The position numbers were made by a program, and so were the translations under genes. Source: Parcubacteria group bacterium (lineage in GTDB: Bacteria; Patescibacteriota; Minisyncoccia; 2-02-FULL-40-12; IGHO2-01-FULL-4-A). Taken from it: 52,908 bases of DNA. The notes beneath the pieces were generated by a model. It did not search any database. It saw only the letters and a list, made by a program, of their open reading frames with translations, and had not been told where the DNA came from. Where the stretch lies: assembly GCA_043821485.1 (NCBI GenBank), contig JBDRCU010000010.1:1-52908 (forward strand), written 5' to 3'. How positions within the stretch are numbered: position 1 is the stretch's first letter; the number at the start of each line of letters is the position of its first letter. Shown here one piece after another: positions 13,302 to 23,325 of this stretch.

Positions 13302-14061
13302 AAATAAAAAAGAGCTGGAGCTCATGGCTGAAAGTGGGAGTATACTTGCAGGCATAATAAAGGAGTTGAGAAATATTGCAAAACCCGGAATGACAACAAA
13401 AGAATTAGATAGGCTCGCTTCCGAGCTTGTTTTGTTTCATGAAGTCAAACCCGCATTCTTAAAATATAATGGATTCCCTTCAACAGTTTGCCTTTCTGTA
13501 AACGAAGAACTTGTACATGGAGTTCCTTCAGAAAAAGTATTGAAAGAAGGAGATCTATTGAGTATTGATATGGGGGTTATCTATAAAGAATTTTATTCAG
13601 ATAGCGCAACTACATTTCCAGTGCTTGGAGTAATGTCATACGATGAATGGAAGGAAAAGAATCCCGAAGCACACAAGTTAATTTCTGTTACAGAAGAATC
13701 TTTGTACGCGGGTATTAAACAAGCTATAGTCGGCAATCACATAGGTGATATTTCCACGGCAGTGCAAACCATCGTCGAGCGCAATAACTTCAGTATTATT
13801 CGTGACCTTGTGGGTCATGGCATAGGAAGAGACTTGCACGAAGATCCACCTGTTCCGAATTTCAGCAAAGCAGATAAAGGCCCAGAGCTTCAATCCGGCA
13901 TGGTAATAGCAATCGAGCCAATGGTTGCAATAGGCGATAGGCATATAGAAGTCATGTCAGATGGTTTTACATATAAAATGAAAGACAATTCCTTGTCAGC
14001 TCATTTTGAGCATACAGTAGCTATCACAGAAAAAGGTCCGAAGATATTGACGAAAGCTTAG
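13288..14061 (+). CDS. map: Methionine aminopeptidase type I
   Basis: SVNEELVHGVP, IDMG, GHGIG...HEDP, AIEPM, SAHFEHT. Confidence 0.97.
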   Translation: MIQIKNKKELELMAESGSILAGIIKELRNIAKPGMTTKELDRLASELVLFHEVKPAFLKYNGFPSTVCLSVNEELVHGVPSEKVLKEGDLLSIDMGVIYKEFYSDSATTFPVLGVMSYDEWKEKNPEAHKLISVTEESLYAGIKQAIVGNHIGDISTAVQTIVERNNFSIIRDLVGHGIGRDLHEDPPVPNFSKADKGPELQSGMVIAIEPMVAIGDRHIEVMSDGFTYKMKDNSLSAHFEHTVAITEKGPKILTKA

Positions 14062-14065
14062 GGTA

Positions 14066-14241
14066 GGGGCTTTTGCGTTTTAACTCATGCGTTATATATA
14101 AATTTCGCGAGCCCAGTGTGCGAACTAAATTTTGTTCGTGCGGACTCTTCGCCGCCATCTCACAAAATTTGTTCGCACACTAGGTCCATAATAGCTTACT
14201 TAGCATAACGAGAATGCTAAACGCACAACGCAAAAGCCTCC
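14066..14241. repeat. Nested inverted-repeat element (REP/MITE-like)
   Basis: Outer arms ggggcttttgcgtt (14066-14079) / aacgcaaaagcctcc (14227-14241); inner arms cccagtgtgcgaactaaattttgt (14112-14135) / acaaaatttgttcgcacactagg (14162-14184). Confidence 0.75.
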
Positions 14242-14305
14242 ATTTTCTCGCTCATCATTTGATCAAATTATTAGAAAACCCTTTAAAATAAGGGTTTTAT
14301 TGGTA

Positions 14306-14335
14306 TTGACAAATGATAAAATAATATGGTATAAT
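14306..14335 (+). promoter_or_regulatory. Consensus sigma70 promoter
   Basis: TTGACA (14306-14311), 18-nt spacer, TGgTATAAT (-10 at 14330-14335). Confidence 0.85.
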
Positions 14336-14341
14336 ATAGTC

Positions 14342-14663
14342 ACAATTAAAATCTAGTTTAGGGTACTAGAAAGGCCGAAAGGCAAAAAGAGGAGAAAGCA
14401 ATAAAAGGCAATATGCGCTTTTTCTTCGAAAAATCACATATTGCCTTTTTAGATAGACCAGAAACACAGCAAAGAAAGATCATTAACAATTGAATAGCGT
14501 TTGCAAATAACATGACTTGTTTGCAGTCGCTAGCGCACAAATTTTAAGGTTTGTGCGTGTAGGTTATGCCCCGCGTCCGTTTTACAGACGGACATGTAGG
14601 GGACCGAATAGAGAGGATCGCGCATAGTGTGCGATTCAAATTCAAAACGATAGGAGAAGAAAA
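14342..14663 (+). ncRNA. Candidate structured RNA / long 5' leader with about seven consecutive hairpins
   Basis: Stems at 14352-14370, 14374-14383 (GAAA loop), 14403-14449, 14495-14532, 14533-14558, 14569-14602, 14616-14636. No family recognised. Confidence 0.45.
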
Positions 14664-15089
14664 ATGAAACAGAAGTGGAACGTTGTGGCTCTGAGGCGGA
14701 GACTTTCCAACCAGATATGTGTACTGCAGGGGTACTTGGTGCTCCCCCCAAGGTACACCTGGAGGATGAAGGAGGTTACCCGTCGCCTGGAAGAGGTTTG
14801 TATCTCCTCCGTGGGAGAGAAACTTCCGACCGTACAGGACGGGAGGGTCGTATTTCCGGCAGGCGAGGTGTTCATCTCGTCTAGCAGGAGGCCCAAGCAC
14901 CAGGGGTTCTTCTTGGAGCTACCGAAGGAAGTACCTCTCTACATCAATGTTCATACTAGTCCAACTTCCCCGGGAAGGGGAGATAAGGTGAGTTGGACGA
15001 CAAGCGACGGCGAAACCGGTGCCGGCATGATGATCTCCCATGAGACCATTCAGGAAGGTAGGGACGGGATCAAGGAATTGATCTTCTAG
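14664..15089 (+). CDS. Hypothetical GC-rich ORFan
   Basis: 141-aa ORF with AGGAG upstream; visibly more GC-rich than its flanks; no motif recognised. Confidence 0.55.
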   Translation: MKQKWNVVALRRRLSNQICVLQGYLVLPPRYTWRMKEVTRRLEEVCISSVGEKLPTVQDGRVVFPAGEVFISSSRRPKHQGFFLELPKEVPLYINVHTSPTSPGRGDKVSWTTSDGETGAGMMISHETIQEGRDGIKELIF

Positions 15090-15308
15090 TCATCCCATCC
15101 GGTGTCGCGCGTGGGTAGATAATACATCTTAGTTCATTCACCGGGAGACGATTTACAACAAGTAATACAACAGTCTCCCACCCACTTGAGTACTTGAAGA
15201 ATCGAGTGTTCAAGCGGGAGGTTAAGTGAATTTCACAGAGTTGGTTAGTGAGGAGTACCCTAAAAATTTTCTATTTTGACCTCACTGCCAGCTTTGTGGA
15301 ATTCATAG

Positions 15309-15340
15309 AAACTCTAGCTCATATATGCTAGAGTTTTTTT
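15309..15340 (+). terminator. Intrinsic terminator-like hairpin; overlaps a TGcTAGAGT -10-like element 6 nt before the next ATG
   Basis: aaactctagc-tcatatat-gctagagttt followed by a T run. Confidence 0.65.
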
Positions 15341-16051
15341 ATGCATCTTTCTGTCATAATTCCGGCTTTTAATGAATCCAAGCGCATTGTGGAGACTTTG
15401 CATTACATTGATACTTATCTTAAGAAACAGGACTATGACTATGAGATAATACTAGTAGACGATGGTTCTGCTGATGATACGGTTGAAGTTGTTAGAAATT
15501 TGAAAATTAAGAATCTTCGCATTATTGAGAATGAGGAGAATCGTGGCAAAGGCGTTGTTGTAAAACAGGGCATGTTAGAAGCCAAAGGCGAATTAAGGCT
15601 TTTTATGGATGCGGATAACTCAACAACGATTGATCAGATAGAAGCACTCTTGCCTCATTTGGATAAAGGCTATGATGTTGTCATTGGTTCGCGCCGTGTT
15701 TATGGAGCGCAGATTGAAATTCATCAGTCATGGATTAAAGAATTTCTTGGTAAACTCGGTAATCTTTGGATTAGATTTTGGGCAGTGTCTGGTATAAATG
15801 ATACGCAGGCTGGATTTAAACTTTTTACTGCAAAGTCTGCAAATACAATATTTGAAAGAATTACTATTGATCGTTGGGGACTTGACTTTGAAGCACTTGC
15901 AATTGCACGCAAACATAAATTTAAAATTAAAGAAGCACCAATCAAATGGTCCAACGATGAACGATCTAATGTAACAACAGGAGGATATATTAAGACACTT
16001 CTTGAAGCAGTGAAAGTTTGGTGGAATCTTTTAACAGGTAAGTATAAATAA
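15341..16051 (+). CDS. GT2 polyprenyl-phosphate glycosyltransferase (dolichyl-phosphate beta-glucosyltransferase/ALG5-like)
   Basis: SVIIPAFNE, VDDGS, NRGKG, FMDAD, DTQAGFKLF, RWGLDFE. Confidence 0.9.
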   Translation: MHLSVIIPAFNESKRIVETLHYIDTYLKKQDYDYEIILVDDGSADDTVEVVRNLKIKNLRIIENEENRGKGVVVKQGMLEAKGELRLFMDADNSTTIDQIEALLPHLDKGYDVVIGSRRVYGAQIEIHQSWIKEFLGKLGNLWIRFWAVSGINDTQAGFKLFTAKSANTIFERITIDRWGLDFEALAIARKHKFKIKEAPIKWSNDERSNVTTGGYIKTLLEAVKVWWNLLTGKYK

Positions 16052-16052
16052 T

Positions 16053-16682
16053 ATGGATATTGGAATAATTGATGCAGTTGTAGATTGGGGTACTACTATG
16101 ACAGAAACCTGGGGCTATCTTGGAATTTTTATAACTCAATCACTTGAAAGCGTAATGATACCGATTCCATCTGAAGTGGTTCTGCCTTTGGGGGGATTCA
16201 TGTCTTCAATCGGAGAAATGAATTTATGGATGCTTATTCTTGTAGCAACACTAGCAAATCTTGTAGGATCCATAGTTGCATACGTGATTGGCGTCAAAGG
16301 AGGGAGGCCGATTCTTGAGCGTTACGGTAAGTATGTCTTGATAACTCATCATGAAATTGAACGCATGGAGAATCTTCTTGAACATCATGGCAGAAAAGTT
16401 GCATTTATTGCACGTCTTCTTCCAGGAATCAGAACCTTCAGCTCATTGATAATCGGAAGCGTAAGAATGCGTTTTTGGACATTTTTTTGGTATACGCTTG
16501 CAGGATCAGTAATATGGAATGGCGTACTCGCATATATCGGTTTTGCTCTTGGAGAACAATGGGAAGATATACATATATATTTCAGAAAATTTGAGATAGT
16601 TATCCTCGTATTAGTTGTGATTGCTGTAGCGTGGTTTATCATCCATCGTATAAGAATTATACGTAAGGAGGAAAATAAATGA
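16053..16682 (+). CDS. DedA family membrane protein
   Basis: LESVMIPIPSEVVLP, ARLLPGIRT, several TM segments. Confidence 0.93.
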   Translation: MDIGIIDAVVDWGTTMTETWGYLGIFITQSLESVMIPIPSEVVLPLGGFMSSIGEMNLWMLILVATLANLVGSIVAYVIGVKGGRPILERYGKYVLITHHEIERMENLLEHHGRKVAFIARLLPGIRTFSSLIIGSVRMRFWTFFWYTLAGSVIWNGVLAYIGFALGEQWEDIHIYFRKFEIVILVLVVIAVAWFIIHRIRIIRKEENK

Positions 16683-18418
16683 ACCAAGAAACAAAAACTT
16701 GTCAAAACTGCAAAAACGAGTTCATCATAGAACCAGATGACTTTGGATTTTATGAAAAGATAGGAGTGCCTGTGCCAATGTTGTGTCCTGATTGCAGGTA
16801 TCAGAGGCGTATTGCAAATCGTAATGAATGGAACTTCTATCATAGGGAATGCGATTTATGTCACAAGAAGATGGTCTCAATCTATAATCCTTCATACAAA
16901 GGTCTAGTCTATTGTCAGCCGTGTTTTTGGTCAGATGATTGGGATCCCCTTGAATATGGGCGGGACTTTGATTTTTCTCGTTCGTTTTTTGAGCAGTTTA
17001 AAGAACATCGTTTCGGGATTCCAAGGATTGCTCTTGCGAATGAAGGGAGTATAAATTCTGAATACACCAACCAATCCAACAACAATAAAAATTGCTACAT
17101 GTGTGTTGCAACAAATTTGTCAGAAAATTCTATGTATGGTAACTGGATTCAAAACAGCAAAGAATGTGTTGATTGCTGGAACATGAAAGAGTGTGAAATC
17201 ATGTATGAATCTCTTGACTGCTTAAAATGTTACGGATCTGCGTTTTTGGAAACGTGTGTGAATACTCATAATTGTTATTTTGGATTTGAGTTGCATGGTT
17301 GCAATGATTGTTTTGGGTGTATCAACTTACGTAATAAATCGTATTGTTGGTTCAATGAGCAACTTACAAAGGAAGAATACAAGAAACGATTAGATGAAGT
17401 TGACTGGACGAATATTGAGATTAATAAATATAGACAGCAACTACAAAAATTGCAGAATAAACAACCAGTCAAATACTATCATGGAAATAGAATTGTTAAC
17501 TCAACAGGTGACTATATCGGTTTCAATCGAAATACTAGGAGCTCGTTTAATAGTTTTAAAAATGATAATTTAAGCTACGGACAGGATGCATGGGAGGCGC
17601 GAGACTGTAGAGATATGACAGAAACTCTTGATAATGAACTTGATTACGAAATGGAAGGGGCGGGATGGTCTTCTGGAAGCATTGTTTCTTGTAAAAACTG
17701 GTATTCTCCACGTGTATCTTACTCAGAGCTTACATTCTCCAGCTCTGACTTATTCGGTTGTGTTTCTATAAAGACGAAAAAGCATTGCATTTTTAATAAG
17801 CAATATTCCAAAGAAGAATACCTAGAGCTTAAAGATAAAATTATCAAACATATGAAGAAAACAAACGAATGGGGAGAGTTTTTTCCTATTGAAATTTCTC
17901 CATTTCCATACAATGACACTGTTGCACAAGACTATTTTCCATTGATCAAAGAAGAAGTCTTGAATAAAGGTTGGAGATGGTATGACAGACAGGACCGTGA
18001 TTACAAAATTACTAAGAGACATGATGAGATTGTAGGTACAATTGATGAAGTTACAGATGATATAGTAAATCAAGTCATAAGCTGTAAGAGTCAAGACAGT
18101 GAAGAATCAAAGAAGAGTCATATAAGCTGTGCAACTGCTTTTCGTGTAACCCCAGCAGAATTGCAATTTTATCGCAAGATGAAGTTACCCATTCCGGACA
18201 GATGTTTTCCGTGCAGATTGCGAGATCGTTTGAACCGTCGCAATCCTCGTAAACTTTATTCTCGCCAATGCGTATGTGATTATGAGATATACAAGAATAC
18301 CGCAGAACACAGTCATCACAAACAAGGGAGATGTCCCCATGAATTTGAAACATCATATGCTCCAGACAGGAAAGAAATAGTATATTGTGAGAAGTGTTAT
18401 CAGGCTGAAGTTGTATAG
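16679..18418 (+). CDS. Cys-rich zinc-ribbon/solenoid protein of unknown function, paralog 1
   Basis: CQNC...CPDC, CDLC...CQPC, Cys/Asn/Ser-rich middle, twin CFGC...N[EK]QxxKEEY units, C-terminal ETSYAPDRKEIVYCEKCY. Confidence 0.85.
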   Translation: MNQETKTCQNCKNEFIIEPDDFGFYEKIGVPVPMLCPDCRYQRRIANRNEWNFYHRECDLCHKKMVSIYNPSYKGLVYCQPCFWSDDWDPLEYGRDFDFSRSFFEQFKEHRFGIPRIALANEGSINSEYTNQSNNNKNCYMCVATNLSENSMYGNWIQNSKECVDCWNMKECEIMYESLDCLKCYGSAFLETCVNTHNCYFGFELHGCNDCFGCINLRNKSYCWFNEQLTKEEYKKRLDEVDWTNIEINKYRQQLQKLQNKQPVKYYHGNRIVNSTGDYIGFNRNTRSSFNSFKNDNLSYGQDAWEARDCRDMTETLDNELDYEMEGAGWSSGSIVSCKNWYSPRVSYSELTFSSSDLFGCVSIKTKKHCIFNKQYSKEEYLELKDKIIKHMKKTNEWGEFFPIEISPFPYNDTVAQDYFPLIKEEVLNKGWRWYDRQDRDYKITKRHDEIVGTIDEVTDDIVNQVISCKSQDSEESKKSHISCATAFRVTPAELQFYRKMKLPIPDRCFPCRLRDRLNRRNPRKLYSRQCVCDYEIYKNTAEHSHHKQGRCPHEFETSYAPDRKEIVYCEKCYQAEVV

Positions 18419-18424
18419 TGGTCA

Positions 18425-18453
18425 TTGACATGGTGATACACTTTTGATACACT
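18425..18453 (+). promoter_or_regulatory. Toxin-antitoxin promoter with overlapping direct-repeat operator candidate
   Basis: TTGACA-17-TACACT with extended TG; TGATACACT occurs twice (18434-18442, 18445-18453). Confidence 0.7.
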
Positions 18454-18490
18454 AAAAATGTAGTTAATAGTACGATAATTTGTTTTTAAT

Positions 18491-18712
18491 ATGCCTACAC
18501 TCAAAAGACGATTGAATATTTCACTTCCGAACTATCTCGATACGGCTATAAGATATCTGGCGAAGAGAGATCAGGTTCCTCAAGCAACCAAAGCAACTGA
18601 TTTGCTCGAACTTGCGCTTGAAATTGAAGAAGACGGAGTCTGGGATAAAATTGCAAGAAAACGCGACACCAAGGATGCCAAGTACATAGGACATGACAAG
18701 ACATGGTCATGA
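18491..18712 (+). CDS. Ribbon-helix-helix-type antitoxin
   Basis: RRLNISL beta strand followed by two helices, acidic LEIEED segment; ATGA overlap with the RelE-like gene. Confidence 0.8.
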   Translation: MPTLKRRLNISLPNYLDTAIRYLAKRDQVPQATKATDLLELALEIEEDGVWDKIARKRDTKDAKYIGHDKTWS

Positions 18713-18984
18713 GTTTTGATATCCTCTATCACGAATTAGTAAAAAAAGAAGATATACCAAAACTCTCCAAGCGAATGCGAGAGCGTATTCGTGGCGCAAT
18801 AGAAGATAAGTTGTATACGCATCCGGAAATATTCGGCAAGCCATTAAGAAAATCCCGCCATCCTTACAGAAAACTCCGCGTAGGAGATTACAGGGTTATT
18901 TTTAAAATGGAAAAAAGCATTGTTAAGGTGTTAATAATAGAGCACAGATCCGTGGTTTACAAACACCTTAAATTAAGGATATGA
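18709..18984 (+). CDS. RelE/ParE superfamily toxin
   Basis: GKPLR, YRKLRVGDYRVIF, IEHRSVVY; start set to ATG 18709. Confidence 0.92.
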   Translation: MSFDILYHELVKKEDIPKLSKRMRERIRGAIEDKLYTHPEIFGKPLRKSRHPYRKLRVGDYRVIFKMEKSIVKVLIIEHRSVVYKHLKLRI

Positions 18985-19003
18985 TTTAATAAATAAAGCA
19001 AGT

Positions 19004-20767
19004 ATGACACAACCAGAAACAAAAACCTGTCAAAACTGCAAGAAAGACTTCATAATCGAGGCAGAGGATTTTAATTTCTATGAGAAAATGCAGGTTCCGC
19101 CTCCTACATTTTGTTGGAAGTGTAGATATCAGAGGAGACTTTCATATCGTAATGAGCGTAAACCTTTTTGGGCTATAAGTGCAAAATCAGGTAAGCGTAT
19201 TATGTCTATTTTCCCACCTGAAGCTGGTATGACAGTGTATGATGAAAAGGAATGGCGTTCTGATGATTGGGAGGCATTGGATTATGGAATGGAATATGAT
19301 TTCTCTAGACCCTTTTTTGAACAATTTCATGAATTAGCAAAAAAGGTTCCACGAAATGGACCTCACACGGAAGATAATGTAAATTGTGAATTTTTGATAA
19401 ATTCTGGCTGGGGTAAGAATAACTATCTTGTATGTAATTCAACTGGAGCTGAAGATTCTGCGTACGGCAATGCGATGGATTGGTGTAAATTTTGTTTTGA
19501 TGGTTCACATATTACTAAATGTGAGCGTAGTTATGGATCGTTTTGGGCGTGGAATTGTTACCATGTCCATTTTTCAACACGATCAGCTGATAATGTATCG
19601 TCCTGGTTTTTGTTTGGATGCAAGGGTATGGTCAATTGTTTTGGTTGCGTGAACATGACTAATAAAAGTCACTACATTTACAATAAGCCTTATTCAAAAG
19701 AGGAATATGAAACCAAAATTAAAGATATGCAACTTAATACTTGGTCAGGATTATTAAAGGCAAAAAAAGAAGCTATTGCATTTGCAAAGAAATTTCCTTA
19801 TGCATATCTGAATGGACTTTTTAATACTGATGTCACAGGTGAATACGTAAGCGAATCAAGTAATGTACATTATGGATATTTAGTACGTGGAGGTAGAGAT
19901 TTGAAATATGTTCAATACTTACAGGTTCCGGGTAGTGAAGATTCATATGATCTTACTATTTGGGGTGAAAAGAATGTTCGTGCATATGAAAATTCAACAT
20001 CTGGTTTGGGTGTCTCGAATTCAAAATTTTTGGAAGGATGCTGGTCAGAAATTTTAGACTCTGAGTACTGTATTGCTTGCAGAGGCATTACGAGTTGTTT
20101 CGGAAGCGTGGGTCTTAGACATAAGCAATATTGTATTTTGAATAAACAATATTCAAAAGAAGAATACTTGCTGCTTAGAAAGAAAATTATTCAGCATATG
20201 AATGATATGCCATTTGTAGATAAGAGAGGTAGGATATATAAATATGGGGAATTCTTTCCAATGGAACACTCGCCAGTTCCATATAACATTTCTTTGGTAA
20301 ATGAACATTTTCCTTTGACTAAGGAGCAAGCATTAGAACAAGGATACGATTGGTATGAACCGGCAAAGAAAGAATACAAAGCAACTATAACTGCTAACGA
20401 TATTCCTGATGCAATTGAGGATATGAAAGATTCAATACTCAAAGAGATAATTGAATGCATGGATTGTAAGCAGGTATATCGTATTCTTGAAATAGAATTT
20501 GCTTTTTTGCGCAGTGAAAAAATTCCAATACCACGTACATGCATTGATTGCAGGCATAACGAACGTATTTCACAACGGGCTAAGGCATTTTTGTATCATC
20601 GTAAATGTAATTGTAATGGTACTAAATCAAGAGATGGTATTTATTCGAACTTCGGAATCCATAAACACGGAAACGATCCATGTTCAAATGAATTTGAAAC
20701 TGCTTATGCGCCTGATGACGATAGGATTGTTTATTGTTTAGATTGTTTTTATCGAGAAGTGGATTAA
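19004..20767 (+). CDS. Cys-rich zinc-ribbon/solenoid protein, paralog 2
   Basis: Same architecture as 16679-18418 (ETKTCQNCK...FETAYAP...IVYCLDC); second zinc ribbon degenerate (SAKSG...YDEKEW). Confidence 0.85.
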   Translation: MTQPETKTCQNCKKDFIIEAEDFNFYEKMQVPPPTFCWKCRYQRRLSYRNERKPFWAISAKSGKRIMSIFPPEAGMTVYDEKEWRSDDWEALDYGMEYDFSRPFFEQFHELAKKVPRNGPHTEDNVNCEFLINSGWGKNNYLVCNSTGAEDSAYGNAMDWCKFCFDGSHITKCERSYGSFWAWNCYHVHFSTRSADNVSSWFLFGCKGMVNCFGCVNMTNKSHYIYNKPYSKEEYETKIKDMQLNTWSGLLKAKKEAIAFAKKFPYAYLNGLFNTDVTGEYVSESSNVHYGYLVRGGRDLKYVQYLQVPGSEDSYDLTIWGEKNVRAYENSTSGLGVSNSKFLEGCWSEILDSEYCIACRGITSCFGSVGLRHKQYCILNKQYSKEEYLLLRKKIIQHMNDMPFVDKRGRIYKYGEFFPMEHSPVPYNISLVNEHFPLTKEQALEQGYDWYEPAKKEYKATITANDIPDAIEDMKDSILKEIIECMDCKQVYRILEIEFAFLRSEKIPIPRTCIDCRHNERISQRAKAFLYHRKCNCNGTKSRDGIYSNFGIHKHGNDPCSNEFETAYAPDDDRIVYCLDCFYREVD

Positions 20768-20773
20768 ATATTT

Positions 20774-22534
20774 ATGCAACCAGAAACAAAAACTTGCCAA
20801 AACTGTAAAAACCAGTTCACAATAGAACCTGATGACTTTGGATTCTATGAAAAGATTGGTGTGCCTGCGCCAATGTTTTGTCGTCTTTGTCGTTTACAGC
20901 GTCGGATGATGTGGCGCAATGAACGTACTTTCTATAAACGTATATGTGATTTGTGTAAGAAAAATATTATCTCTACGTACAATGAGGATGTTCCGTTCCC
21001 TGTTTATTGTCAGAAGTGCTGGTGGGGAGATGAATGGGACCCTAAATCATATGGTCGTGATTTTGATTTTTCTCGATCGTTTTTTGAGCAATATCAAGAG
21101 CTTCTTGATTCTACGCCTGCTTTGTCAATAATGAATGATAATGAAATAGCTAGTGTAAATTCGGAATATGCTTATGACTTTGCCTTTGCAAAAAATTGTT
21201 ATCTTACGGCTGCAGGATGGTATTCGGAATATATTTTTTATTCATACTATACATGCTATGACAAAGAAATTTTGGATAGTTATATGATATTAAATTCAGA
21301 ACTTTGTTATGAATGCGTTGATGCTGAGCGCGATTCGCGCTGTAAGTATTGTATTCAATGTTTTGATTGTATGGATTGCATATTCAGCTTCGATCTTAGA
21401 GGATGCAATGATTGTATTTTAAGCGTTAATTTGAGGAATAAGAGTTATTGCATATTGAATAAACAATATACAAAAGAGGAATATGAAATTAAGAAAAAGG
21501 AGATGCAATTTAATAGAAGAGATAAAGTAGAAGAGTATAAAAAGCAATTTAATGAACTTATTTTAAAATATCCTCGAAAATACGCATTAATACTCAAGTC
21601 AGTTAACAGTACGGGACATGTAATTGAAAATTCAAAAAATGCCAAAATGTGTTTTGGTGTCGGTGATATAGAAAATTCTAAATATTTGATGAGTGTAGAT
21701 GGGGCCAAAGATTGTTATGATGTAGGAAATACCGGTCAGTCGGAGCTGTCTTATGAAAGTGTTACCCCTGATCAGGCGAATAGGGATATTTTTACAATAT
21801 ATTGTTGGAAATGTACAAATGCATATTATTCTAATAACTGTCATTCATGTCAAAATATATTTGGATGTTCGAATATGAAGAGTTCTCAATATTGTATATT
21901 GAATAAACAATATTCAAAAGATGAATACGATAATATGACTAAACGTATAATTAGTCACATGGAAGAAACTGGAGAGTATGGTGAATTCTTTCCTGCTGAT
22001 TTAAGCCCATATGCATACAATGAGACACAGGCACATGAATATTTCCCGCTGGATAAGGAACAGGCTGTTGAGGAAGGCTATAGATGGAGAGATAAGATAA
22101 AAAAAGATTACAAGATTACCATAGAACCAAAAGATGTACCGTTTACTATTTCAGAGATATCAGAAAATATAACAGAAGAAGTGATTGGATGTGAGCATGA
22201 AGGAAAGTGTAATGAGAAATGTACGGTAGCATTTAAGATTCATCCTTATGAATACCAATTCTATAAGAAGATGAACGTTCCTTTGCCAGTACTTTGTCCT
22301 AATTGCCGTTTTTATAAAAGAATCGAACTTTATCGTAACCCACCGAAACTTTGGCGTCGCAAGTGTCAATGTGCAGGGCAGACATCAGGCAATGAATTGT
22401 ATAAAAACACAGCATTGCAACATCAATCGCATTCGCCAGACCAGCATTGTTCGGAAGAATTTGAAACGAGCTACTCACCAGACAGAAAAGAAATAGTCTA
22501 TTGCGAGAAATGTTATCAGGCTGAAGTGGTTTAG
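20774..22534 (+). CDS. Cys-rich zinc-ribbon/solenoid protein, paralog 3
   Basis: Same architecture; termini nearly identical to paralog 1. Confidence 0.85.
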   Translation: MQPETKTCQNCKNQFTIEPDDFGFYEKIGVPAPMFCRLCRLQRRMMWRNERTFYKRICDLCKKNIISTYNEDVPFPVYCQKCWWGDEWDPKSYGRDFDFSRSFFEQYQELLDSTPALSIMNDNEIASVNSEYAYDFAFAKNCYLTAAGWYSEYIFYSYYTCYDKEILDSYMILNSELCYECVDAERDSRCKYCIQCFDCMDCIFSFDLRGCNDCILSVNLRNKSYCILNKQYTKEEYEIKKKEMQFNRRDKVEEYKKQFNELILKYPRKYALILKSVNSTGHVIENSKNAKMCFGVGDIENSKYLMSVDGAKDCYDVGNTGQSELSYESVTPDQANRDIFTIYCWKCTNAYYSNNCHSCQNIFGCSNMKSSQYCILNKQYSKDEYDNMTKRIISHMEETGEYGEFFPADLSPYAYNETQAHEYFPLDKEQAVEEGYRWRDKIKKDYKITIEPKDVPFTISEISENITEEVIGCEHEGKCNEKCTVAFKIHPYEYQFYKKMNVPLPVLCPNCRFYKRIELYRNPPKLWRRKCQCAGQTSGNELYKNTALQHQSHSPDQHCSEEFETSYSPDRKEIVYCEKCYQAEVV

Positions 22535-22554
22535 AGATATGGTATACTATTGAT

Positions 22555-23325
22555 ATGGGAAAGATCATAATAGCTAATTGGAAGGCTAATCTTGGGAGTC
22601 TGGACGAGGCTCGTGGGCTATTTGAGGCTGAGAATAAGGCCTCGGGGGAGTATCCAAGCGTTGAGACTGTAATATGTCCTCCTTTCGTATTTATAGAGGA
22701 ATTGTCTGGGATGGCCGTGGATACTGGTTTGGCTGTTCTAGGGGCGCAGGATGTATCTCAGGAGGCTTCAGGGCCTCATACAGGAGAGGTAACGGTAGAG
22801 ATGCTTAAGGGTTTTGGCGTTAAATACGTTCTTGTCGGACATTCTGATAGACGGAGCCTTGGGGATACAGATGAGGTGATTAATAAGAAGATTAAGCTTT
22901 TGATTGAGGCAGATATTACTCCAGTGCTTCTGGTTGGCGAAGAAGAGAAAAATGATGCCATAAGCCAAGATACTCTTGTTGATCAATTATCCCGTGGATT
23001 GGAGGGTCTTGCTAAGGAGCAAGTAAAAAAAGTGATTTTGACGTATGAGCCTGTCTGGGCAATTAGTACCAGTAAAGATGCTGAAGCAGATACTTCGGAA
23101 GGTGCAGTAAGTGCAATTAAGATGATGCAGGATATTTTAGTTAAACTTTTTAATTTTGATTTAGATGATATGCCAAAGATTCTTTACGGAGGCAGTGTTA
23201 AAGAAACTAACGTTGGAGATTTTATGGCGAAGTCTGAAATTGCCGGTGCAGTTGTGGGTGGAGCAAGTTTGCGTCCGGAAGAATTTAAAAATATATTAAA
23301 GATTACAAATGAAAACTCTAGCTGA
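22555..23325 (+). CDS. tpiA: Triosephosphate isomerase
   Basis: ANWK, GHSDRR, YEPVWAI, LYGGSV, VGGASL. Confidence 0.95.
   Translation: MGKIIIANWKANLGSLDEARGLFEAENKASGEYPSVETVICPPFVFIEELSGMAVDTGLAVLGAQDVSQEASGPHTGEVTVEMLKGFGVKYVLVGHSDRRSLGDTDEVINKKIKLLIEADITPVLLVGEEEKNDAISQDTLVDQLSRGLEGLAKEQVKKVILTYEPVWAISTSKDAEADTSEGAVSAIKMMQDILVKLFNFDLDDMPKILYGGSVKETNVGDFMAKSEIAGAVVGGASLRPEEFKNILKITNENSS

Follow-up and report, generated by a model that had tools for sequence, protein, structure and literature searches.

The genome of a Parcubacteria group bacterium (Patescibacteriota; GCA_043821485.1) raises the question of why so small a chromosome would carry a tandem array of large, Cys-rich paralogs between two housekeeping genes. 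We analyzed a window of 52,908 nucleotides of this genome (contig JBDRCU010000010.1, positions 1 to 52,908 of the forward strand), in which three paralogs, termed p1, p2, and p3, are all intact open reading frames (ORFs) on the + strand:

16679..18418, + strand: p1, paralog 1, an ORF of 579 aa
19004..20767, + strand: p2, 587 aa, with a p1-like layout minus the four Cys of the second N-terminal ribbon
20774..22534, + strand: p3, 586 aa, whose orthogroup is sister to that of p1

The layout of p1 begins with two N-terminal zinc fingers, followed by two Cys-rich blocks that are predicted to be β-solenoids, each ending in a capping helix; an acidic FFP/YNET region then leads to a pair of C-terminal zinc fingers. 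The protein is 37% identical to p2 and 46% identical to p3, and a search with p1 in its own genome (G000) returned p3 at E 1.9e-154 and p2 at E 6.1e-101. Five further full copies and one fragment lie on contig C30 of the same genome; the eight full copies amount to ~13.9 kb, or ~1.6% of the 877-kb genome. An initial annotation of the window had proposed a scaffold with an exchangeable core, swapped by recombination at conserved ends, and a candidate polymorphic sensor or defense family. We find that the family occurs essentially only in genomes with an extra, dedicated ATPase paralog, here called type C, and that its cores are old, constrained, and subfamily-specific, not exchangeable.

Co-occurrence of the family with an extra ATPase

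The family is large, uncharacterized, so far seen in Patescibacteria, patchy, and usually present in many copies per positive genome. A word-indexed search retrieved >6,124 relatives, the best of them 65% identical to p1 over the full length and thus closer to p1 than its own paralogs are; all of the given source names were Patescibacteria lineages. An exhaustive search of 50%-identity representatives returned 3,702 at E ≤ 1e-3, as expected from the initial annotation of a large uncharacterized family, and 1,440 at E ≤ 1e-30. Full-text literature searches, supplements aside, and term searches within PMC12102498 and PMC6744442 turned up no description of the family. When the phylum was sampled evenly, it was found in 23 of 401 genomes including G000 (22 of the 355 high-quality ones), with 3–39 first-look candidates per positive genome, and among 20 close relatives it was found in one (G006, from a related genus, with 18 matches). 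The family is therefore common in Parcubacteria, as the initial annotation stated, in absolute numbers but not by the share of genomes that carry it. Fully scored genomes gave 21, 17, 10, 5, and 2 family matches, and G268 holds a single copy. The largest expansion found is in G418 (C1:60563-120342), where 21 copies form two opposed arrays within 60 kb that begin ~1 kb from a type C ATPase.

Every one of the 21 genomes in the relatives set has VirD4-like ATPases of types A and B, and type C is found only in G006, at 82% identity. All three types are present in each of the five family-positive genomes that were fully checked. In the phylum sample, 32 genomes had a hit to type C at E ≤ 1e-135 and were placed on a tree, worse hits being taken as negative without one. 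Of the 56 rows in this ATPase tree, 24 form the type C clade (Shimodaira–Hasegawa-like approximate likelihood ratio test, SH-aLRT, 100); 22 of these come from family-positive genomes and the remaining two from G295 and G404. The nine near-threshold hits contributed by family-negative genomes all branch elsewhere. Across the 401 genomes, 21 carry both the family and type C, two the family only (G323 and G397), two type C only (G295 and G404), and 376 neither. The co-occurrence spans ~15 GTDB families, and in one of these (f23) the same 5 of 13 genomes carry both. A family gene is found no more than 10 kb from type C in 15 of the 22 genomes that have both, and four distant lineages show separations of just 50, 54, 182, and 232 bp. 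The tree groups genomes of one GTDB family; type C thus follows GTDB families, which points to vertical descent with losses and argues against island hopping.

In G000, the type C ATPase lies within the main array on contig C30:

C30:7619-8665, + strand: sigma-r4/HARE-HTH regulator, an ORF in the motor operon
C30:8712-10010, + strand: X, 432 aa, with a predicted VirB4 N-terminal-domain fold
C30:10072-11763, + strand: family gene, between X and the ATPase
C30, between this family gene and the type C ATPase, + strand: ParE-like toxin, an operon neighbor
C30:12600-14081, + strand: type C VirD4/TrwB-like ATPase, 493 aa, assigned by Pfam matches
C30, after the type C ATPase, + strand: NYN, TspO, Phd, and ParE genes, array neighbors
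C30, + strand: four further family genes of the array, interleaved with CutA1 and HTH-Fic
C30, after the array, − strand: type A VirD4-like ATPase, 591 aa, adjoining pilin-like genes

The ATPase scores above the Pfam cut-offs for T4SS-DNA_transf, TrwB_AAD_bind, and TraG-D_C, and models of coupling proteins and DNA translocases (TraD, VirD4-like CD1115, CedD) match the ATPases below their cut-offs. Neither type A nor type C has a transmembrane (TM) segment. X had no sequence match in the Pfam or NCBIfam scans used, and the protein database labels it PF26449.1. Its AlphaFold 2 (AF2) model, with a predicted local distance difference test score (pLDDT) of 91.8, aligned by VIA-align to TrwK/VirB4 of plasmid R388 (7o42_A, residues 33-434) with a Z of 15.3 and a root-mean-square deviation of 4.3 over 263 residues, the next hit reaching 7.4; the top 11 Foldseek rows were likewise all TrwK/VirB4 (best E 5.3e-5). 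By its model, X has the fold of the VirB4 N-terminal domain (NTD). It is a separate gene adjoining type C in G000, G006, and G365, and an X-type domain is fused in front of the ~750-aa type C ATPases of G418, G051, G101, and G213. Such a domain is also fused to the universal ~815-aa type B ATPase, placing the predicted VirB4-NTD fold in both X and type B. The VirB4 N-domain model PF03135 had no match in our genome (97.7% complete), although a VirB4 of the monoderm type could go undetected by it. In G002 and G005, two relatives without the family, the operon is simply regulator–X–ATPase; in G000, the family gene and the ParE-like toxin intervene between X and the ATPase.

These ATPases have been surveyed before. 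PMC12102498 reports 5,713 VirD4-type homologues in 2,918 Patescibacteria genomes, just 148 of them near virB4, and its authors leave open an exaptation of the VirD4-type genes for another function. The paper also describes a TrsD-like protein, remotely similar to the VirB4 N-terminus, as widespread in Patescibacteria; the operon layout of G000 agrees with this remark. The split or fused VirB4/VirD4-hybrid ATPase module of Patescibacteria, a TrsD-like protein plus an orphan coupling protein, has its closest counterpart in the regulator–X–ATPase operon that G000 shares with family-negative G002 and G005. What differs here, and in ~6% of the sampled genomes, is an additional type C paralog that travels with the solenoid family.

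Three side observations concern the ATPases and the main array. The pilin-like genes next to the type A ATPase, in G000 (C30:26113-33468) as in G006 (C11:20000-26100), encode prepilin-type N-termini and are accompanied by a PilC-like gene, with no X. A fourth VirD4-like ATPase (~524 aa) is encoded on contig C54:2553-3848 and groups with genes of G418 and G257 (SH-aLRT 100) on the type B side of the tree. Between NYN and TspO, an 83-aa ORF (C30:14775-15026) matches the N-terminal zinc-finger module alone (E 2.4e-32 with the family profile) and may be either a remnant or a stand-alone end module.

From the co-occurrence and adjacency, we tentatively propose that the paralogs are clients, as cargo or adaptors, of a dedicated type C motor, a reading that we consider quite possible though short of probable. 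Membrane-anchored X and the soluble VirD4/TraD-like ATPase would form a two-piece, type-IV-secretion-like motor that drives a client set. The paralogs would then be interchangeable clients, either cargo that is handled or translocated or adaptors that present different cargo. The zinc-finger ends, conserved family-wide, would serve as a common docking or handling module, and the old, subfamily-specific solenoid cores would provide differing binding surfaces. Co-occurrence and adjacency would in that case mean physical or functional coupling, in which the ends dock and the cores specify. As in the type IV coupling proteins (TrwB/VirD4/TraD), a VirD4/TraD-like P-loop ATPase is genetically linked to a cytoplasmic set without signal peptides, and one ATPase paralog serves that set alone. 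Here, however, the ATPase is soluble, with a VirB4-NTD-like partner or fusion in place of the TM domain of the coupling protein; no relaxase or channel genes are nearby; and the clients would be 8–21 paralogs of one 580-aa zinc/solenoid architecture. Legionella DotL, with its adaptors IcmS/W, LvgA, and the zinc-binding DotN, is a coupling protein of this kind. It would be a long shot that the orphan coupling-protein ATPases of Patescibacteria find their missing cargo in these paralogs, exported as rigid, signal-peptide-less rods to the cell surface or into the host cell. If true, each old paralog would be aimed at a different host structure, and episymbiotic bacteria would have both a protein-export route and a class of effectors or adhesins that are new.

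Several points weigh against the paralogs being clients of the motor. G295 and G404, which belong to the same genus (g31) as G268, carry type C with no family match even at E ≤ 1e-3. Neither family-only genome gave a type C hit, G323 being a 250-contig assembly and G397 having family genes as fragments only; the assignment of weaker ATPase hits as negative, given above, belongs here as well. The positive genomes are kin and not independent, and the table of genomes overstates the count of independent events. For the other 7 of the 22 genomes with both, only three family hits per genome were scored, which does not amount to firm absence of a nearby copy. The window trio is far from any ATPase and p1 is translationally coupled to dedA, so the proteins must at least be made independently of the motor operon. 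The pLDDT is just 61–74 in solenoid block 1, and the conservation of solenoid Cys within the orthogroup is moderate (0.05–0.96), so that a Cys-lined, metal-stapled core is not established.

The genomic link might also be co-location without function, the arrays gathering in a recombination-tolerant spot beside a duplicated ATPase operon and the family working alone, for example as a cytoskeletal or scaffolding rod. The arrays do hold unrelated accessory genes (TspO, CutA1, NYN, Fic, ABC transporters, GGDEF), the window trio works away from the operon, and type C occurs without the family in two genomes. Yet a neutral meeting place would have to account for 21 genomes with both against 2 + 2 discordant ones over ~15 GTDB families, for the 5 of 13 genomes of f23, and for an adjacency of 50–250 bp in several distant lineages, and we consider it unlikely.

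Old cores and conserved ends

Whether cores are exchanged between copies was examined on a maximum-likelihood tree of 72 full-length members from seven genomes. Each window paralog has a one-to-one ortholog in G006 (60% identity for p1, 63% for p2, and 51% for p3; SH-aLRT 100 each), a partner of this kind exists for five of the eight G000 copies, and the p1 and p3 orthogroups are sisters (SH-aLRT 97). For the core, defined as residues 116-468, we used 11 ortholog pairs from three genome pairs; in each of the 22 members, it resembled the ortholog more than the best-matching paralog of its own genome. Among the 55 sequences of the p1 orthogroup, identity to p1 is 48–53% for the solenoids and 60–64% for the ends, compared with 25–37% and 40–65%, respectively, among the window paralogs. 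Across the family, conservation is highest at the ends, and the cores have diverged further between paralogs than inside orthogroups. Since the core follows the ortholog throughout and the pairs are fully supported, the proposal of polymorphic core swapping fails; the initial annotation had itself named stable one-to-one orthology across relatives as incompatible with it. Deeper in the tree, one clade (SH-aLRT 100) unites all 10 copies of G365, and another (SH-aLRT 99) the 21 copies of G000 and G006. As copies group by lineage at this depth, the expansions were either separate in the major lineages or homogenized long ago.

The ends of p1 and p3 are as similar as the initial annotation had reported, with 95 of the first 110 and 52 of the last 60 nucleotides identical and a shared C-terminal ending, PDRKEIVYCEKCYQAEVV. 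The divergence of the middle was equally apparent in sliding windows of 30 residues, where amino-acid identity falls to 17–40%. Of the 30 residues identical between p1 and p3 in their first 40, 22 are encoded by the same codon, where genome codon usage would predict 14.1 (z ~3); at the C-terminus, the corresponding 12 of 18 against 8.3 was not significant. Exact words shared by p1 and p3 reach 17 nt at most, and none beyond 17–23 nt is shared among the window copies. With so short a longest word between p1 and p3, no recent exchange has taken place.

Older homogenization was assessed with a quartet test that compares within-genome paralog pairs with cross-genome non-orthologous pairs. For G000 and G006, identity over the first 50 residues was 0.60 within and 0.51 across genomes, in the same direction in 10 of 10 quartets, although the ten quartets derive from five gene pairs and are not independent. 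The same codon was used at identical residues in 0.52 within versus 0.36 across. The core showed nearly equal values (identity 0.36 versus 0.35; same codon 0.50 versus 0.47), and the last 35 residues gave 0.53 versus 0.49, in 6 of 10 quartets. Little concerted effect was seen for the genome pairs G418/G051 and G418/G101. An ortholog-versus-best-paralog test at the ends (17/22 and 18/22) was set aside in favor of the quartet test, as it is biased by taking the maximum over many paralogs. Of the proposed recombination at the ends, then, a signal in the first 50 residues of one lineage pair stands, set against two other genome pairs and a lack of long identical tracts. On our reading, end similarity would reflect mainly purifying selection, with modest gene conversion at the 5′ end in the G000/G006 lineage, and not core swapping.

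The same data bear on whether these proteins form a polymorphic sensor or defense family against phage or other invaders, its cores swapped by recombination at the ends. The homogenization within genomes at the first 50 residues (10 of 10 quartets for G000/G006) extends to synonymous sites, which speaks for such a family. Its distribution of all or many copies (3–39 first-look candidates in each of 23 of 401 genomes) is patchy; 4 of 7 genomes have toxin–antitoxin (TA) or mobile-type genes among their arrays, with 3 of 3 above-cut-off ParE/RelE-type matches of our genome inside its own arrays; and there is a weak resemblance of the ATPases to mad8 and HerA of PADLOC (E 2e-11 to 4e-13). We nevertheless judge a defense role highly improbable. 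None of 22 cores favors a paralog, orthologous cores are supported at SH-aLRT 100 and conserved at 48–53% in the orthogroup, no exact tract beyond 17–23 nt is shared between window copies, and the two other genome pairs are almost without concerted evolution. A PADLOC scan of p1, p2, and p3 returned 0 families at E ≤ 0.01, and the type C tree, in following GTDB families, looks like vertical descent.

Architecture, predicted fold, and composition

Profile comparisons indicate that much of the architecture arose by repetition. The two internal Cys-rich blocks are duplicates of each other (hhalign probability 99.6%, E 1.8e-24, over 109 columns). A second copy of the N-terminal finger lies close to the C-terminus (99.0%, E 7.6e-18), and the second ribbon has its own copy at the extreme C-terminus (93%, E 3.5e-7). 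The order along the protein is finger A, ribbon B, solenoid, solenoid, acidic region, finger A′, and ribbon B′. These features, in intact proteins of 579, 587, and 586 aa, agree with the zinc-ribbon-like termini and two internal Cys-rich blocks first assigned to the trio. In p2, Cys 58, 61, 79, and 82 of p1 are replaced by S, S, D, and E, and the G006 ortholog clade of p2 likewise lacks the second N-terminal zinc ribbon, so the ribbon is dispensable in one subfamily. The proteins appear cytoplasmic, as proposed, with no TM or signal-like segment: the maximum 19-aa Kyte–Doolittle mean is 0.76–1.22 in p1–p3, and 71 of 72 family members have no window ≥ 1.6. A search for longer forms found two proteins (1727 and 1114 aa), both of them tandem copies read as one, with no foreign domain.

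Known domain models reach only parts of this architecture, and the Pfam and NCBIfam scans gave no match above cut-off for p1, p2, or p3. Below the cut-off of 24, zf_Tbcl (PF13451) matches p1 at 20.9 bits (E 3.4e-4, residues 5-45) and p2 at 16.6, with no match to p3. The p1 match spans model positions 4-45 of 48 and includes the CxxC...CxxC pattern, which suggests that the N-terminal finger is a divergent relative of zf_Tbcl. Some database relatives bear PF13451 in precomputed annotation. For PF23477 (cut-off 27) and TIGR04272 (cut-off 36), p2 alone matches, at 15.9 and 14.7 bits over residues 560-583. Compared with the small treble-clef proteins of the zf_Tbcl, zf_Tbcl_2, and TIGR04272 type, similarity to PF13451 is seen in the N-terminal finger and in its repeat, and similarity to PF23477/TIGR04272 in the last ribbon; all of these matches are below cut-off and cover ~90 of 580 residues, and the solenoid and FFP regions have no model. 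In the p1 orthogroup, the zinc-finger Cys are 76–100% conserved at both ends, in keeping with the zinc-finger-type termini of the initial annotation.

The AF2 model of p1, built from 58 sequences, has a pLDDT of 85 and a predicted template modeling score of 0.88. Foldseek with this model found nothing at E ≤ 1e-3, and all of its weak rows were left-handed β-helices. By VIA-align, the best matches for solenoid 1 were spruce budworm antifreeze protein (CfAFP, 1m8n; Z 5.8), Lolium ice-binding protein (3ult; 5.4), and Tenebrio antifreeze protein (TmAFP, 1ezg; 5.0), with 77–93 residues aligned; a Z of 5.0–5.8 is rated by the tool as a common arrangement. Regular Cys spacing is common to both groups. 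The antifreeze proteins are, however, secreted and disulfide-bonded, unlike the cytoplasmic proteins described here, and no sequence relation was found. In the family, Cys are spaced at lags of 3, 9, 12, and 15, with hydrophobic residues at lag 12. The blocks are thus likely narrow β-solenoids as modeled, in line with the β-helix expected at the outset, and we accept nothing beyond that. The family profile had 0 matches at E ≤ 10 among all Protein Data Bank chains, and ESM Atlas returned only the family's own unnamed clusters.

Composition bears on two further explanations. The paralogs might handle nucleic acids, their fingers binding DNA or RNA, the solenoid acting as a spacer or DNA mimic, and the VirD4-like ATPase being a DNA translocase, for example for taken-up DNA. 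Finger A′ (residues 469-530) is strongly basic, with a mean net charge of +6.5 (n = 72) and +10 in p1; the sub-threshold ATPase matches to TraD, VirD4-like CD1115, and CedD, and the pilin-like genes beside the type A ATPase of G000 and G006, would also fit. The proteins are acidic overall, though (mean pI 6.3), the FFP region before A′ carrying −7, and match no known nucleic-acid-binding family at the sequence level. Such handling would leave the need for 8–21 differing cores unaccounted for, and we regard it as quite improbable.

A role in buffering or storing metal (zinc or iron), or as a redox scaffold, apart from the ATPase and with copy number setting capacity, would suit the 19–49 Cys per protein (mean 35.3, n = 72 members) and the 9–15 His in p1–p3. 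Metal-linked genes are also found in arrays: CutA1 sits inside the G000 array, and metal transporters occur only in that of G006 (VIT1 and Nramp), together with MsrA between family genes (L063:3789-6974 on C11). These neighbors are anecdotal, being present in just 2 of 7 genomes. Solenoid Cys positions differ between paralogs, strong conservation being limited to the finger Cys, and a metal store would account neither for subfamily-specific cores nor for the tight ATPase link. We give it very little credence, and continue to prefer, tentatively, clients of the type C motor.

Insertion of the trio, its neighbors, and what the family means

How the trio came to lie far from the motor operon is apparent from the genes around and within it:

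16053..16682, + strand: putative DedA-family membrane protein gene, named from reading of the sequence alone; left edge of the insertion
18425..18453, + strand: promoter-like site TTGACA-N17-TACACT, a consensus match with a GATACAC direct repeat, 5′ of the TA cassette
18491..18712, + strand: antitoxin-like ORF, 73 aa, whose 3′ end overlaps the toxin start by 10 nt
18703..18984, + strand: ParE/RelE-superfamily toxin, 93 aa, PF05016 (E 4.1e-7, 30.9 bits, cut-off 23)
22555..23325, + strand: putative tpiA (triose-phosphate isomerase), named in the same way; right edge of the insertion

Just 8 and 20 bp separate the homologues of dedA and tpiA in G002 and G005, both of them family-negative, and in the window the two genes are parted by the 5.9-kb block p1–TA–p2–p3. 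Because the two genes abut in those relatives, the trio is an insertion into a housekeeping junction. In G006, the p1 and p2 orthologs are neighbors in the main array by the type A ATPase, and tpiA lies elsewhere. The window trio is a satellite array that was inserted together with a ParE-type TA cassette, the main array being on C30. The cassette, which like the lost ribbon of p2 and the copies on C30 had escaped the initial annotation, splits the array between p1 and p2 at 18491-18984. Its toxin gene combines a PF05016 match above the gathering score with an overlapping small ORF upstream; that ORF has no Pfam, NCBIfam, or PADLOC match, and its position and overlap with the toxin suggest the antitoxin role.

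p1 is translationally coupled to dedA, as an AAGGAGG Shine–Dalgarno sequence lies inside the last codons of dedA and the p1 start overlaps the dedA stop (ATGA). The site at 18425-18453, with its GATACAC repeat, could be a candidate autoregulated operator of the TA cassette; promoter-like sites are not enriched in the region (25 found versus a shuffle mean of 27.7). In one groundwater metatranscriptome run (X1), four short contigs of 152–328 nt match p1, the antitoxin ORF, and p3. One is identical to the p1 stretch 17510-17661, one spans 18534-18716 of the antitoxin ORF with one gap, and two are identical to the p3 stretches 21406-21733 and 21876-22066. Two sister runs had no contig matching the array. 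As evidence of expression these matches are weak, DNA carry-over being possible. Upstream of the array, the 1.3 kb at 14062-15340, between map and a glycosyltransferase gene, contains just overlapping short ORFs on both strands, and GC is slightly raised (0.416) in the 14001-16000 window. Rfam had no match at the gathering score over 14000-23000.

We surveyed 95 non-family ORFs in the arrays of six genomes other than our own. The recurrent neighbors are the type C ATPase (all six), TrmB-type regulators (twice each in G051 and G418, once in G101), and TPR proteins beside the ATPase (G418 and G213). The motif HTKP was absent from all 16 array-neighbor ORFs inspected for it. TA or mobile-type genes occur in G006 (NYN, KilA-N, DUF559), G051 (Fic, Bro-N), and G101 (HicB-like and a sub-threshold MazE), and none was found in the arrays of G418, G365, and G213; with our own genome included, the arrays of 4 of the 7 examined contain them. 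In G000, the arrays make up ~2.4% of the genome and hold both PF05016 matches and the sole PF15781 match above cut-off (3/3 ParE/RelE-type) as well as the sole Phd antitoxin match (1/1), both PIN toxins being elsewhere. The arrays are, in our reading, landing sites for small selfish cassettes. In the cassette arrays of Vibrio superintegrons, TA cassettes are thought to prevent large deletions. The likeness lies in ParE/RelE- and Phd-type genes between repeated genes with similar ends, although no integron integrase or attC sites are present here. That TA cassettes might likewise stabilize these arrays against deletion between similar ends is only an idea.

Together, the new elements are the type C clade linked to the family, the all-or-many distribution, the empty-site proof of insertion, and the ortholog-stable cores. 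They replace a picture of hypervariable defense with one of stable, old subfamilies and mild homogenization of the ends, and they distinguish, with counts, between a motor that is universal (types A and B) and one that is accessory (type C with its arrays). In family-positive species, tiny Patescibacteria genomes devote part of their sequence, 1.6% in the present case, to 8–21 copies of one uncharacterized protein. For the orphan VirD4-type ATPases, of which one clade has been gained and lost together with the family, these proteins provide a concrete, testable set of partners.

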